Assembly: GCA_000182565.2 (NCBI GenBank)
Contig: KQ257453.1
Length of the DNA stretch: 64,000 nucleotides
Reading direction: 5' to 3' (one strand)
Source of the DNA: Spizellomyces punctatus DAOM BR117
Taxonomy: Eukaryota
Shown in pieces: positions 133 to 51,629 of this stretch. The notes under the pieces were generated by a model. It did no database searches. It was not told the origin of the DNA and worked only from the letters and a program-made list of their open reading frames with translations. Positions within the stretch are counted from its first letter, which is position 1. Every line of letters begins with the position of its first letter. The translations under genes and the position numbers were made by a program.

Positions 133-182
133 TCTGGTAGTGCATCACCCATGGTATATACCATGGGTGATGCACTACCAGA
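133..182. repeat. Perfect 50-bp palindrome
   Basis: tctggtagtgcatcacccatggtat|ataccatgggtgatgcactaccaga: 25-bp arms, no spacer. Confidence 0.97.
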
Positions 183-286
183 TAGGTCTCATTAGGCAGG
201 AAAGCTTTTGCAAAGGAAGTTTTGTTGCATGTATGTAAGGTGGGTTTGTCAAGCTTTTCAAGCTTTTGCTTTTTCTTTGGCGGCAT
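182..286 (-). pseudogene. Fz1: Truncated Fanzor1 (SpuFz1-like) N-terminus with NLS
   Basis: Translates MPPKKKQKLEKLDKPTLHTCNKTSFAKAFLPNETY, essentially the SpuFz1 N-terminus as recalled, with an SV40-like NLS (PKKKQK). Similarity stops after NETY, exactly at the palindrome; the frame stops at 20. Confidence 0.85.
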
Positions 287-307
287 GATGATTGGAATAG
301 AAAAATG

Positions 308-512
308 GATGAAAGCCTGGAAAATGGGCAGAGAATGATGAAAGCCTATTGGCAGAGAATGATGAAAACCTGGGAAATGGGCAGAGAAGGCGGGTTTATA
401 TAGAGATATGACAACTGCGCATTGGACCCATTTTTCAATGGTGGAGCAACTGCAGAATATTCAATCCGTTCATTGCCGCACATATTGGACCTGTTTTTCA
501 ATGGTGGAGCAT
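308..512 (-). promoter_or_regulatory. Putative Fanzor promoter/5' UTR with internal repeats
   Basis: Minus-strand TATATAAA at ~395-402. Two ~30-bp repeats (attggacc..tttttcaatggtggagca at ~421 and ~484) each contain CCAAT on the minus strand. Three imperfect gaaa(g/a)cct..ggcagagaa repeats lie at 311-388. Confidence 0.5.
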
Positions 513-597
513 CGTTTGGGCATCGAACCATTATCAAATCATAGTTCATGAGTCTAAATCGAGTAAAATTATGATTCAATTGGTTGGAATCACTGTA

Positions 598-627
598 CTA
601 GTGCCAATACCCACCGGCTCCGCACTA
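598..627 (-). repeat. Terminal inverted repeat (left end) of the Fanzor element
   Basis: Plus strand CTAGTGCCAATACCCACCGGCTCCGCACTA, followed by TG; the minus strand reads CATA-GTGCGGAGCCGG. The partner repeat is not in the window. Confidence 0.8.
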
Positions 628-674
628 TGTTCGAGAAAAAGCCACCAAAAAATGTCCACTGGAATGACCCCCGA

Positions 675-1789: not shown

Positions 1790-3261
1790 ATGCCTGGACA
1801 ATTGGCGGAACCCGTCTTGACGGTCGCCTTTAACAACATTCAGAAACTCACTTCCATTGACGAGTCAGACTTGCAAACAATATGGAATGGCAAGTATTTA
1901 CCTTTGCATTCGCCTTGCTCTTTGTGCCCGCTTTTTTGCATAGTCTCGCTCTCTCTCAGGCAAAGCGTATACTTACCCACTCTCTCTCGCTAGTCTTTAC
2001 AAAGTGCAAGGACAATTTGGAAAATGGCCGGCGCTTGGAAAACATTAGCTGGAGACTGTGGTATCGCTCCTGTCATGGCCACTCACCAAAGGAAGACGCT
2101 TCTCCCCTCCACATTCCCAATGTTCAACAACCCAAATCCCAAAAATCCCCGCACGTCTCTCCCGAATCCTTTAACAGACTATTGAAAAAAGCAGTCGAGG
2201 ACTCGAAAAACACCACCACCGCACGCAAAGAATCGACTGCGAATTTGGCCCAACTAAAGGCTGATGCCGCAGCATCCATCCTTCAGGAACAGCAACAGCA
2301 GCAACAACAACAACAACAACAACAACAACAACCAGAGCAACAACCAGAACAACCACAAGGAGAATTGTGGCAGCAACCACCTTCACAACAAGACCCGCAT
2401 CTACCCGTGGCTGCCCTCGTCCTCACTCCCCCTGCTGCTCGCGTTGCACCGCCTCCACCCGCCGCTGCCATCCAACGCTGTAATTCTGCCGCAGCCATCC
2501 TTAAACCTCAACCCACCCGAACCTACGCCGCACCACTTGTTCCCGCTCACCACCCACAGGCGCGCATCTCTCCTGCCGTTCTCCCATATCGCGCTCTCCC
2601 ACCCAGCGCACTCGGCCCACGTCCACAACCCACTGCAGTGCATCCAAATAATGACCGGCCCAAAGTGAAGTTTTTCATTTCAGAGAGTCACTCTCCGGAT
2701 ACCCCTGAACGTCTTCCTCAACGCCGCCCTCTTCCTGCTCGATCCAATCTCTCTACATGTACTAGTATTACAACAAGAAATCCCGTGACAGCAGCAGCAG
2801 CACCACAAACAACAGCGGCAACTCAAGGCTATGATTCTGATGACGATTTCAGTGACTCGGATTTTTCAGATTTCTCAGACTCTGAAGACTATAGTGATGA
2901 TGAGTCGGACGAGCCTAGCTCAACGGACGCGCCCGTCTCACTCTTTCGCAAAGTGGACATTTACTCGCAGAGCGCTGCCGCCAGAACAGTCACACCCAAG
3001 CGATCTCTCCTCTCTGTTGCGCTCAAAGAAGGCTCCGCTCTGAAACGTGCAAAGCCATCACAGTTTCGCAACCTAAACGCCATGGGACGCCCATCAAGAG
3101 ACGAGTGTGAAACTACATCAGCAGGCACAACATCCGAGCTGTCACAGAGTTTACGTGAGAATTTAGAGTGCGAGCGTCGCATGATGCCCTACAATATGCG
3201 ATTTGCCCGCGGTGTGCATGCGGGAGCTGCATCGGCGTTTAATGAGGAAGGCTATTGGTGA
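1790..3261 (+). CDS. DUF1752 (AreA GATA-like N-terminal motif)/DUF3295-type fungal regulatory protein with polyQ
   Basis: WNVFTKCKDNLENGRRLENISWRLW motif after splicing intron 1890-1993 (GC-AG); C-terminal TSELSQSLRENLECER...EEGYW; polyQ and acidic tracts. Confidence 0.8.
2287..2358 (+). repeat. (CAA/CAG)n coding microsatellite, polyQ
   Basis: Run of caa/cag triplets inside the ORF. Confidence 0.9.
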
Positions 3262-4297: not shown

Positions 4298-6229
4298 ATG
4301 GGCGACACATTTCACCTCACGCAAAGCGCAACACAAGCATTCCTCAATGGCAGATACGCAGAAGCCCTCCAGCACCTCCACCAACTCTCCAGTCTGACAG
4401 ATGGAAAAGATCCACACGTGGAACATAATATCCTTGTTGCGGAATGGTATGCTGGGAAACTCGTTGGTGCAGAGAATCTCGTCAAGAGGATCGATGGAAT
4501 ATTAGGCATGGCGCAATTAAAAAAGGAGCAAGATGATTCACGAGATCGGGATCCATTGTTGGCTGATTCGAATGGTGATCAAGTGGTGGGATCTGGACGT
4601 GACAAGATGACTGCTACGTATAATCGCGCTGTGGGATTGTACCTCTCTGGAAACGCCCAAAAAGCCCTCGATTCCCTTCGTCCCATTCTGGATGACTTGG
4701 AAATGACAGACGCCTACGTGGGCCTTCGGGCGAGTTTGTTGGCTGTAGAGTGTTGTATGGCCTTACGGGTGCCTGTCATGGCCAGAAATGTGCTGGATGC
4801 GGCTGAGCGGGCGTTCAAGGACCGTCTAGTACGCGATGGAGAGGAGGAATCTGCTGATGGGTCAAGTAGCGGGTTGGCGCCGACGCTCAAGGATGCTATA
4901 CCCGTCTCATGTGGATCACTAGACACTGTGTTGTCTGTCTTGAGAACCCGTGTCTACCTCCTGGAAAAGAGCAAAGCAGATGCTAAAACCGAATTAAGCC
5001 GTCTTGAAAATGATAACCCTCCGCTAGAGACCTCTTCTTCAATCTACCGCAACATGTCGACTCTCTACATGCAAGCCCACCATGCCTACCTCCACGACTC
5101 GCCCCAAACAGCCATGACCGCCCTCGACGCATGCACTAAATCTACATTCACCCCACCTCCTACAAGAACCCCGACCATCCCACCAGACGACCCAACCCCC
5201 CTCTTCAAAACCCTACCTACGTATTACCACAACGCTCTAGGCTGCCTAAACGCCAAATCCGGCAACCACGCCACAGCCGCTCTCTCCTTTTCCAAAGCCC
5301 TCGCCGAAAACCAAACATGTATCAAACACCTCGTATCCCAAACCACCCCCCACAACACCACCACCATCAGTGACCAAGACGACGAAAAAGAAGAATGGGA
5401 ACGCATCGCAGAAGAACAAGACCGTCTCGACAATGACCTTGCCCGAACCACCCCACTCCCTCCCTCCCTCCCAACCCTCTGCAACACCCACCCCATCCTC
5501 TCCTACAACGCCGGCATCCAACTCGCCCACCTCGGTAAACCCTCACTAGCCTACACATGCTTTTCCCGTGCGCTATCAACAGTACCATCTTCAGCACATG
5601 TACCACCCTACCTATTGTACACCCATATAGGCCTAACATGTCTCGACATGTATAAACCAACGTTGACACCCCAAACGATTACCATCGGACACTACAAACT
5701 CGTGACCCCAAAACACCAAAGCAACGTACCCCTCCAAAAAGCCCAACAAGCATTCGAAACCGCTCTTGAACAATGCCCGGCAAACGCGGTACCTGTTATA
5801 TACCTTTATCTAGCTTACACGAGTCTGTTACAGCGTCGCATGGAAAAAGTTTTGCAGTACTGTGCTGTTGTTTTGGATCATGAACCTATTGGGCAGTCAC
5901 ATGTCCTTGCGGGGCTTTATATCCGGATTGCGTGTATCACGTTAGGGAGGCCTCCTCCGCCCTTGTTGGAACCGCTTTCGCATTCTTTGGCGACTGTTTT
6001 GGGGTTGTTTGAACAAACGGTTGCGGCGAGGGGGACGTACCCCCCGCATCCGGCGTTGCCTTCCTTGTTGAGTAGGTTGGAGGGGGCGGTTAGGGAGTAT
6101 GAAGGTGGGAAGGGGGCGTTGGTGTGGATTGCGTTGGCGAGAGGGGATAAGAGGGCGGCGTGGGAAGCATTGGGAGGTGAAAAGAAACGAGAACAACGGA
6201 GTGTTGGTGGTGACGAGTGGGGATTTTGA
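4298..6229 (+). CDS. CNOT10: TPR protein, CCR4-NOT subunit 10-like
   Basis: Long single-exon ORF. Motifs ATQAFLNGRYAEALQHL..EHNILVAEWY, YHNALGCL...FSKALAEN and LSYNAGIQLAHLGKP..AYTCF parallel the animal CNOT10 TPR blocks. Confidence 0.7.
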   Translation: MGDTFHLTQSATQAFLNGRYAEALQHLHQLSSLTDGKDPHVEHNILVAEWYAGKLVGAENLVKRIDGILGMAQLKKEQDDSRDRDPLLADSNGDQVVGSGRDKMTATYNRAVGLYLSGNAQKALDSLRPILDDLEMTDAYVGLRASLLAVECCMALRVPVMARNVLDAAERAFKDRLVRDGEEESADGSSSGLAPTLKDAIPVSCGSLDTVLSVLRTRVYLLEKSKADAKTELSRLENDNPPLETSSSIYRNMSTLYMQAHHAYLHDSPQTAMTALDACTKSTFTPPPTRTPTIPPDDPTPLFKTLPTYYHNALGCLNAKSGNHATAALSFSKALAENQTCIKHLVSQTTPHNTTTISDQDDEKEEWERIAEEQDRLDNDLARTTPLPPSLPTLCNTHPILSYNAGIQLAHLGKPSLAYTCFSRALSTVPSSAHVPPYLLYTHIGLTCLDMYKPTLTPQTITIGHYKLVTPKHQSNVPLQKAQQAFETALEQCPANAVPVIYLYLAYTSLLQRRMEKVLQYCAVVLDHEPIGQSHVLAGLYIRIACITLGRPPPPLLEPLSHSLATVLGLFEQTVAARGTYPPHPALPSLLSRLEGAVREYEGGKGALVWIALARGDKRAAWEALGGEKKREQRSVGGDEWGF

Positions 6230-6335: not shown

Positions 6336-9300
6336 TCACCCACTCTTTGCACAAAACCCAAACACCTTGCTCAAATCCACAAACCTCCTCGCATTCCTCT
6401 CCATATACCTCCCCACCAACCCTCCTAAAACCCTTAGACCCTCTCCATCCCTCCTCATCAACAAATCAACATGGACCATGCGCGTATCATCATTGACCCG
6501 TATCTCCAATCTTTTGATTATCGAATAATGTGATAGGTAGTCGAGNNNNNNNNNNNNNNNNNNNNNNNNNNNNNNNNNNNNNNNNNNNNNNNNNNNNNNN
6601 NNNNNNNNNNNNNNNNNNNNNNNNNNNNNNNNNNNNNNNNNNNNNNNNNNNNNNNNNNNNNNNNNNNNNNNNNNNNNNNNNNNNNNNNNNNNNNNNNNNN
6701 NNNNNNNNNNNNNNNNNNNNNNNNNNNNNNNNNNNNNNNNNNNNNNNNNNNNNNNNNNNNNNNNNNNNNNNNNNNNNNNNNNNNNNNNNNNNNNNNNNNN
6801 NNNNNNNNNNNNNNNNNNNNNNNNNNNNNNNNNNNNNNNNNNNNNNNNNNNNNNNNNNNNNNNNNNNNNNNNNNNNNNNNNNNNNNNNNNNNNNNNNNNN
6901 NNNNNNNNNNNNNNNNNNNNNNNNNNNNNNNNNNNNNNNNNNNNNNNNNNNNNNNNNNNNNNNNNNNNNNNNNNNNNNNNNNNNNNNNNNNNNNNNNNNN
7001 NNNNNNNNNNNNNNNNNNNNNNNNNNNNNNNNNNNNNNNNNNNNNNNNNNNNNNNNNNNNNNNNNNNNNNNNNNNNNNNNNNNNNNNNNNNNNNNNNNNN
7101 NNNNNNNNNNNNNNNNNNNNNNNNNNNNNNNNNNNNNNNNNNNNNNNNNNNNNNNNNNNNNNNNNNNNNNNNNNNNNNNNNNNNNNNNNNNNNNNNNNNN
7201 NNNNNNNNNNNNNNNNNNNNNNNNNNNNNNNNNNNNNNNNNNNNNNNNNNNNNNNNNNNNNNNNNNNNNNNNNNNNNNNNNNNNNNNNNNNNNNNNNNNN
7301 NNNNNNNNNNNNNNNNNNNNGGGTTCTTAGTTAGGCTCTTGTTGATAATGAATTTCTCAAGAGGAACGAGTCCTTGTCGGACTTCTTGACCGACTTTGGA
7401 CAGGTACGCATGGATCTTGTCCAAAACGTTTTCCTTGTCATCTTCCGAAAAGATTTGGTTCAAGATGTAACTTGTCCATAAGAAACGTATCAGCACAAGA
7501 GCGTATTACAAACACTCAACCGTTTCGACAAAAATAAACTCACCTACTAACATCCTGACTCAACCCACACCAATCCCTTCTCACCAAATCCAACCCCTTA
7601 GTCTCCAACACAGTCTGCAACCGCCCATCCTTTTCTTCAACACTCAGCGCAGCATACTTTTTCTTCTTTAAAAGCAACATACGCTGATAATACCCATCCA
7701 TCTCAATCTCCAAAAGGTTATACCGCTTGTTTACGGCTTTTTTAAACTCGTTCCCAATTTTCTTGACTTGAGCCAAGTCATGCGTGTTGGTGTGAATCAT
7801 GATGGAGTCCGTGTCACCGTAAATGACTTCGAGGTGCTCTTGTTCGGCAAGGTCCACCGTGTTTTGCAGAATCTCTCGTCCCTTGCTCGTGATGAGCATC
7901 GCGAGGGGTTTGGCGTAGAATCGAGAATGGGAAAACCCAAGACATCCGTACATACTATTAGCAGTCAATTTCAGAGCTTTTTGTCGGATATCATACTGCG
8001 CCAGTTGAGCAGGCGTGGCTTTAGGGTCTTTCATTAGGTTCTTGACGGCTCGACGCCGTTCAACAAGGGCAGCCAAGAGTTTTGGCAAGATGCCTTTGGC
8101 GAGATCCGGATCCGGTACATCCGGCATCTGACCCTCTTCCCCATCAGATGACCGATCGACCGTCGTGAAACAGATATTGTACTCTTGGATAATCGAAGGG
8201 TACAAACTGTTAAAATCAAGCAACAAAACAAACTTGTCGTAAAATCCCTTTTTTGGTTCCAGCACGAGACCACCCGCATACGCCGGTTTTCGTCGGCTGC
8301 TGCCTTGCTTGGGTTGTGGTTGACCCTCGTCCTCCATTTCATGAAGCTGATCTGTAATTACTTTCTTCCCACCAAAGATCTTGTCCGGGACTACAAACTT
8401 TTTGTTATGGAATTCATGAAGGAGAAGATACTCATTTCGTTCGGCTCGCGCTCCAGTCATTGTACGCGCCCACAAATTGCCGGCAAGGTTCGTGAGTTGC
8501 CTCGTCAGTGGCAGGACCTGAAGCTTAAACATCAACTGAGCTTGAAGGTACCCGTCAAATTCACAGTGTTGGATCATTTCAAGAAGTTTTCCCGCATCCC
8601 AAAAATATGTGGGAATTTTCTCATAGTCAATGTTGGGCCGGTCCACTTTTAGCTGAGATGCAGCCAGCTGCGTCAAACTGTAACTCTTTGACCTGATCAA
8701 ATCCTATCGATTGAACCGCAAATGAGTATCATATATAGACTAACAGGTCTTACTCATTCATTATTCACCTGCGCTGCCCGATAGGTATCACATAGCAGTC
8801 GTCCGCTAGCAATCTGCCTCTCCGCAAACGTTGAATCCGCGGTACCACCAGCCCCCTTTTGCAGATGTGGCCATCTATTCAATCCAATGAGTCCACGTTC
8901 TCACAAATCGCAAGTCCTACAAGCCACCTACTTTGTTCTCCGCAATCGACCAATCTTGGACCACTGATCAACCTTATGCCATTTCATACGATGCAACAGT
9001 ACATCCAAGTCAAAGTCGATGAAATTGTGTCCGACAATGATATCGGGATCACTTCGATGAATCTGGGCTATATATAAGCACAATGTCAAATCCAAACGTC
9101 TAGCAAGTGGTCCTTTCAAGCACAGACTCACCAATCAGGAACCCAAGCAACCCTCGCTCGTTGCGAAGAATTTCCACTTTTGTTTTTTGCTGCTGTAAAA
9201 GCGTATTGAACCCAGCAGGAAGTGGAATATCTTCCAACTGTCGAACAACCGTAAATCTCGTTGGTTGTTGCTGATCCGTCGTCACGCCGTCAAGATTCAC

Positions 9301-51557: not shown

Positions 51558-51629
51558 GCCTTCTTAGCATAGTGGTAGTGCGTCTGCCTCGTAAGCAGAA
51601 GGTCGCGTGTTCGATCCACGCAGGAGGCA
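51558..51629 (+). tRNA. tRNA-Thr (CGT)
   Basis: GCCTTCT-TA-GCAT-AGTGGTA-GTGC-G-TCTGC-CT-CGT-AA-GCAGA-AGGTC-GCGTG-TTCGATC-CACGC-AGGAGGC-A cloverleaf. Confidence 0.95.

Follow-up and report, generated by a model that had tools for sequence, protein, structure and literature searches.

The window analysed here is a stretch of 64,000 nucleotides from Spizellomyces punctatus DAOM BR117, with 46.6% G+C. Near its left edge, on the minus strand, is a tRNA-Gln(CTG) gene (675 to 746), called by ARAGORN and scored at 62.9 bits with Rfam. Just upstream of this gene, at 872 to 1006, there are three to four copies of the motif CAATGCTATGCATGT and its variants (families D2 and D6). A U6 snRNA gene (19519 to 19645, minus strand; 69.5 bits, Rfam) and a second tRNA gene (51558 to 51629, plus strand; 68.2 bits, Rfam) lie further into the window. 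An open reading frame of 643 aa (4298 to 6229) has a 100% identical protein on record, with the next match, from S. sp. 'palustris', at 86%. A 459 aa open reading frame on the plus strand (1882 to 3261) contains a long glutamine run and Ser/Asp-rich stretches; its exact sequence is absent from the protein collection and the annotated gene model probably differs from it. There is one assembly gap, a run of 775 N at 6546 to 7320.

Downstream of the tRNA-Gln gene, and outside its limits, is the end of a mobile element. At 598 to 627 on the minus strand there is a 30 nt sequence, TAGTGCGGAGCCGGTGGGTATTGGCACTAG, which is the left-end inverted repeat of a Spu-1 element. The minus-strand junction reads ...ctcgaa, CA, TAGTGCGGAGCCGGTGGGTATTGGCACTAG, tacag. 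The CA (629 to 628) is the flanking dinucleotide and the TA (627 to 626) is formed by the first two bases of the repeat, giving CATA at 626 to 629. By manual count 18 of the 30 bases of the repeat are G or C, against 46.6% for the window. It has one match in the window at 3 or fewer mismatches, with none of 100 shuffled sequences giving any match, and no second copy, direct or inverted, is found in the 64 kb even at 11 or fewer mismatches. The ends of the repeat itself, TAGTGC...GCACTA, are able to pair as a 6 bp stem in the computed fold. The 3' end of the tRNA-Gln gene is 47 nt from the repeat, and between them are two T-runs (652 to 647 and 640 to 636).

Short motifs such as CATA, TATA and CCAAT are not significant alone; CATA occurs nine times on the minus strand of positions 1 to 760. 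The CATA at the junction is meaningful because of its position relative to the repeat. It is equal to the 5'-CATA target-adjacent motif (TAM) of SpuFz1 described in Saito 2023 (PMC10432273), and the CA outside the 5' repeat also matches. The 30-mer agrees with the repeat of that description in length, place and the adjoining CA, the letters of the published repeat being given as a figure logo only. A preliminary description of this DNA, made from the sequence, had proposed a GC-rich terminal inverted repeat of 30 bp entered from a CATA TAM. Both parts are confirmed, with every feature in place at 627 to 598 and 629 to 626 and with the CA and first TA of the repeat together making up the published motif.

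Between the repeat and the start of the Fanzor (Fz) gene is a non-coding region of 311 nt that is internal to the element (287 to 597, minus strand) and multi-copy by reads. Motif matching finds five CCAAT sequences in it (583 to 579, 488 to 484, 425 to 421, 352 to 348 and 295 to 291) and one TATA motif, TATATAAA, at 402 to 395. Two occurrences of the sequence CATAGTGC are found in the window, where 1.5 are expected. Tandem duplications are present at 308 to 388, with three units of 24 to 28 nt, and at 421 to 511, with two 28 nt units at a spacing of 63 nt, each of which holds a CCAAT. Since a contig from set X1 skips 53 nt of this region (307 to 361), one duplication is missing from some copies, and the unit number varies among copies; the window copy has the extra 53 bp upstream duplication that the X1 copy is without. 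By eye, the translation of the 287 to 597 region looks similar to the N-terminal extension in the gene model of P0018.

Transcription of the family was followed in X15, a stranded RNA run with the same species label, of which about 6% was read, with 1,046 reads mapped. Sense depth is 18 to 24 over 397 to 528, upstream of the TATA motif, and 15 to 17 over 309 to 396, downstream of it, for the family as a whole, since X15 reads from different Spu-1 copies are not distinguishable. There is no step in sense depth at the TATA motif, so a start site just after it is unsupported. The preliminary description had read this region as a promoter; the CCAAT and TATA motifs are indeed there, but the RNA depth is as high upstream of the TATA as downstream.

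The Fz frame opens with an ATG at 286 to 284 on the minus strand, as given by the motif and open reading frame listing. The open reading frame (286 to 20) has 88 aa and begins MPPKKKQKLEKLDKPTLHTCNKTSFAKAFLPNETY. Its first 35 codons (182 to 286, with position 182 as the third base of codon 35) are those of a SpuFz1-type Fanzor, including the sequence PPKKKQK and the start of the WED domain. Residues 2 to 36 match SpuFz1 as it stands in PDB 8GKH, where it is fused to MBP (chain 8gkh_P), with an E-value of 1.2e-14 and one gap of 3 residues. In a paralog search among longer proteins, 22 of the 39 scored candidates had E-values of 1e-3 or lower. All but one of these belong to S. punctatus DAOM BR117 (21 proteins), the exception being from Spizellomyces sp. 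'palustris', and the lengths of ten lie between 580 and 638 aa. The peptide is 100% identical over the aligned part to four of the S. punctatus paralogs (P0001 and P0003 to P0005). In alignment A1 the window is identical or nearly so to the paralogs through residue 35 (…NETY) and unrelated afterwards. When the full-length P0006 and P0002 were used as tblastn queries against the 64 kb, only 286 to 182 was found (E about 1e-15), the rest having E-values of 0.28 or more. These matches establish the identity of the fragment, and bear out the earlier proposal that it is the SpuFz1 N-terminus; the outcome that the same description had set against itself, a peptide with no similarity to Fanzor proteins, is not what was found.

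The 3 residue gap (RLK) sits in a 9 nt tandem repeat at 249 to 267 (2.1 copies). It is common to P0001 to P0005 and is therefore a trait of a subfamily and not damage. From the sequences, the copy number of the 9 nt repeat appears to explain the RLK/RLE difference of 3 residues among SpuFz1 paralogs.

Pfam finds no family in the 88 aa open reading frame at E-values up to 10. A local copy of Pfam-A likewise gives none at 0.01 or lower for the full-length P0006, P0002 and P0018, for which precomputed annotation gives PF26935. The N-terminal segment contains the basic motif PPKKKQK, which we take to fit the classical nuclear localisation signal (NLS) pattern. Its role as an N-terminal NLS is putative, being read from the motif. 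Of 22 other Fanzors tested in Jiang 2023 (PMC10530073), in the main text of which Spizellomyces does not appear, 21 had a working N-terminal NLS, and in the text available from Saito 2023 (PMC10432273) nuclear localisation is mentioned only for expression constructs. A test of SpuFz1's own NLS was found in neither of these texts, as available.

Public reads were mapped to positions 1 to 1300 of the window, with a likeness of at least 85 and both directions summed. Two of the sets, X16 and X17, are ChIP DNA libraries, and the ratios between their depths are not copy numbers. For X16, mean depth is 4.3 in the flank (749 to 1300), 42 to 74 in the bins of the tRNA gene (661 to 748), 538 to 726 over 529 to 616, 63 to 135 over 309 to 528, 226 to 322 over 177 to 308, and 1 to 5 over 1 to 176. 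The corresponding values for X17 are 3.7, 22 to 30, 386 to 405, 123 to 188, 368 to 703, and 18 to 26. In raw DNA reads, 183 to 627 is repeated tens of times, and likeness to the family ends at 183 on one side and at 627 to 630 on the other. The letter of the window at position 254 is found in 4 of 196 X16 reads, a check that is free of ChIP bias. Among the positions listed there are at least 13 where most X16 reads carry a letter other than that of the window; one of these, 614, falls within the repeat, and 334 of 460 reads disagree with the window there. It is clear that the segment belongs to a multi-copy family.

The reads also define both boundaries. Before 183, the loose ends of 156 X17 reads have an agreement of 0.9 and, read by hand in frame on the minus strand, give Y-R-Q-R-L-L, which is the continuation of Fz found in P0002 and P0006. 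The window copy is therefore truncated at a point where other copies go on. Behind 627, 628 and 630 the agreement of the loose ends is low (0.48 to 0.56), so there are many different flanks, as expected for one terminus. The preliminary description had allowed that the 30-mer might be single-copy, or located away from element ends. This was not the case, as its depth is about 100 times that of the flank (not to be read as a copy number) and the reads enter different flanks beyond 627 to 630.

Two further classes of reads diverge inside these boundaries. The first diverges before 533 (88 X17 reads, agreement 0.92) and has only 533 to 627 in common with the window. It may derive from ghost elements, which have the Spu-1 repeats without the Fz gene. 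It was considered whether the window copy is itself such a ghost. Apart from this read class, the numbers favour that view, since ghost loci outnumber Fz loci three to one (134 and 42) and have similar repeats and the CA (Saito 2023, PMC10432273). However, the window has the start codon of Fz and 35 of its codons, which ghost loci lack by definition, so this reading is already refuted and its residual probability is negligible. The second class diverges before 598 (38 X17 reads, agreement 0.99). Here the 30-mer alone stands in a second conserved context, of the kind expected at a right end; the identity of this context as the omegaRNA scaffold is putative.

Taken over the whole segment from 183 to 629 on the minus strand, it is very probable that this is the left-end remnant of one Spu-1/SpuFz1 Fanzor copy of S. 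punctatus DAOM BR117. The remnant consists, in order, of the flanking CA, the 30 nt inverted repeat, the upstream non-coding region and the first 35 Fz codons. Its identity, its presence in many copies, both of its boundaries and its truncation are shown by the matches and reads above. At 182/183 the Fz gene gives way to unrelated low-copy DNA, made up of a 50 bp palindrome and, after it, 27 nt tandem repeats.

The RNA reads from X15 speak to the activity of the family. Sense depth over 177 to 308 is 46 to 80, against 0 to 4 on the other strand. Over 573 to 616, plus-strand RNA, directed outward through the repeat, has a depth of 233.8 against 104.7 for the Fz-sense strand, within a wider signal at 573 to 660, and behind 628 and 630 the plus-strand reads have loose ends that vary. 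Outward reads over 573 to 660 would fit transcripts of the omegaRNA type made at the right ends that other copies possess.

The abundant sense RNA of the family over 177 to 308, together with a frame in which an ATG and 88 codons are open, might suggest a new role for the remnant, in which its upstream region drives an 88 aa protein with a basic N-terminus, or in which it affects the tRNA-Gln gene. This is highly improbable. No X15 reads are found on 1 to 176, in any of the four bins, in the approximately 6% of the run that was read, so nothing shows transcription across the break. Residues 36 to 88 are a translation of the palindrome and tandem repeats with spurious matches only, and the exact 88 aa sequence is absent from the protein collection. 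The two T-runs of the tRNA gene separate it from the element. A HMMER search with residues 36 to 88 against 1.84 billion representatives returned two matches (E-values of 1.5e-6 and 5.6e-5), both of which were rejected as spurious; the match inspected, P0025, is a translated tandem repeat with about 26 to 30% identity.

The DNA on the other side of the break is of a different nature. A perfect 50 bp palindrome (I1) occupies 133 to 182, starting exactly where Fanzor likeness stops. It has 25 nt arms that are 100% complementary and has no spacer. Its fold has an energy of -50.4 kcal/mol (z of -9.4), and no other perfect palindrome in the 64 kb reaches 40 nt. Beyond it, at 1 to 132, is low-copy non-Fanzor sequence with 27 nt periodic tandem repeats (54 nt double unit; D1), the array at 41 to 133 having a period of 27 and 3.4 copies. 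The segment from 1 to 181 is not Fanzor, and the rest of the 64 kb contains no relative of it. Its depth is at the level of the flank in X16 and about six-fold above it in X17, so it is not a high-copy element. An X1 contig of 142 letters has 66 of these on positions 1 to 66 of the window with a repeat-type joint (29 back to 1), which suggests that similar repeats run about 76 nt beyond the left edge of the window. A reading of TGGTAGTGC... as a tRNA primer-binding site was rejected, as by eye there is no fit to a tRNA 3' end.

Among the matches listed there is no read or contig bridging 182/183, so that this junction is taken from the assembly alone. A spacerless palindrome located exactly at the break and without equal in the window could also point to an assembly artefact, either a palindromic mis-join or a collapsed repeat. 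This is very unlikely. Both sides of the junction are present in independent DNA reads from 2026, and 1 to 176 has coverage in both X16 and X17. Among the best-supported matches listed, none has a loose end behind 176 to 182, and the sole N gap is far off.

Some short sequences of the foreign segment recall the Spu-1 element. The hexamers TAGTGC and GCACTA, which pair to close the hairpin in the Spu-1 repeat, are also found in the palindrome stem. On the minus strand, four 27 nt units carry CCCATAGT, so that CATAGT recurs in the array every 27 nt; the same six letters, made up of the TAM and the two repeat bases after it, stand at the left-end junction. Of 688 segments of 181 nt taken from elsewhere in the window, 2 contain both CATAGT and TAGTGC, in a comparison that is post hoc and in which tandem copies count as one event. 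This co-occurrence is probably due to chance. The break would be non-random if the foreign DNA were the end of an undescribed Spu-1-related element, or a hairpin-type repair scar, inside the Fanzor gene, a reading that we regard as very doubtful. Self-targeting was rejected as the cause of the break, because the nearest sense-strand CATA (235 to 232) is about 50 nt away and SpuFz1 cuts 16 to 21 nt from its TAM (Saito 2023, PMC10432273).

Another possibility, which we hold to be rather unlikely, is a complete element interrupted at codon 35 by a nested insertion. In that case the remainder of Fz and the right-end repeat would lie to the left of position 1, perhaps with an omegaRNA that is still expressed, and it is there that the preliminary description had placed the right end. 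This reading gives the copy the same identity as that of a truncated remnant, and the two part only over what lies beyond position 1. Likeness is lost at a single point, as an insertion would have it, and the foreign DNA opens with a TG...CA palindrome and tandem repeats of the subterminal type. There are also precedents, since Saito 2023 (PMC10432273) describes embedded genes at 11 Fz loci, among them Ty3/Gypsy inside Fz. Against this, the foreign 1 to 176 is not high-copy (1 to 5 against a flank of 4.3 in X16, 18 to 26 against 3.7 in X17), although further tandem units could explain the excess in X17. The foreign segment has no relative in the 64 kb, and there is no other Fz piece or repeat in the window.

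In the truncated remnant, only 35 of about 630 codons are left, and the RuvC residues D383, E541 and D606 are far beyond codon 35. No further piece of Fz is found by tblastn elsewhere in the 64 kb. No omegaRNA scaffold was found in the window, where Rfam, which may lack a model of Fanzor omegaRNA, gives only the two tRNAs and U6. With neither catalytic residues, nor a scaffold, nor a second repeat in the window, the remnant is read as an inert relic. The copy cannot make the nuclease and is dead. The decay that had been proposed for it is confirmed by the alignment, tblastn and the reads, all of which have the open reading frame cut after codon 35.

The N-terminal homology, the 30 nt repeat with its CA, and the CATA at the left-end junction are all as expected of a Spu-1 member. 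An inverted second repeat about 2.1 kb away, to be expected on the side left of position 1, an Fz open reading frame of approximately 630 aa with RuvC and a zinc finger, and a 75 nt omegaRNA scaffold with a 14 to 15 nt guide are not found within the window. The copy is thus a fragment of a Spu-1 member and not a working member. From the published system, the right-end omegaRNA of an intact copy would guide Fz to CATA plus the sequence of the right flank. The empty site, CA-TA plus the right flank, would offer exactly that target.

Metagenome contigs were searched for a complete Spu-1 element with P0006 as the query, giving 159 pattern matches of which none was confirmed, and for the exact 30-mer, giving no matches. 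The 30-mer at a right end was therefore not seen directly, no complete element being available among these contigs for comparison.

The element family is already known, with its repeats, conserved CA, TAM, omegaRNA, biochemistry, structure and a census in DAOM BR117 published. The hope that this copy might be new is not sustained, as Saito 2023 (PMC10432273) catalogued 42 loci with full-length (19) or partial Fz in DAOM BR117, in addition to 134 ghost loci. The locus in the window may already be in the published lists of Fz loci. It adds one truncated Spu-1 copy, 47 nt downstream of a tRNA-Gln gene, the possible value of which is as a dated relic for studying the decay of Spu-1 copies. If the right end survives beyond the break, there would be one more guide in the repertoire discussed by Saito et al.

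The system with which the remnant is to be compared has been described twice. Bao and Jurka 2013 (PMC3627910) described SPu-1 as an element of about 2,100 bp with 33 bp terminal inverted repeats and putative TA target duplications. In Saito 2023 (PMC10432273) the SpuFz1 locus is 2.1 kb, with 30 nt inverted repeats, a conserved CA upstream of the 5' repeat and a 5'-CATA TAM. Its omegaRNA is a 75 nt scaffold ending in the 3' repeat followed by a 14 to 15 nt guide, its catalytic residues are D383, E541 and D606, and a transposase was not found between the Spu-1 repeats. Genes such as Ty3/Gypsy are embedded in 11 loci. Both descriptions fit the window, in which CA, TA and the rest of the repeat follow one another. 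The ghost Spu-1 elements of Saito 2023 (PMC10432273) have similar 30 nt repeats and CA, as the window copy has, but their repeat differs at seven positions and they are without the Fz open reading frame, the start of which is present in the window copy.

Spu-1/SpuFz1 comes closest, since it is from the very same genome and agrees with the window copy in the 35 residues at the N-terminus, the window copy belonging to the subfamily without RLK, like P0001 to P0005. About 450 bp of the roughly 2.1 kb element is kept, and there is no right end or omegaRNA in the window. In the IS200/IS605 elements encoding TnpB and omegaRNA, such as ISDra2, the TAM is at the left-end junction, the omegaRNA comes from the right end and the right flank serves as the guide. 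Spu-1 shares this logic of TAM, omegaRNA and guide, so that its empty site would be the target, although Spu-1 is not known to home. It differs from IS200/IS605 in being eukaryotic, in being bounded by inverted repeats, and in its putative TA duplication.
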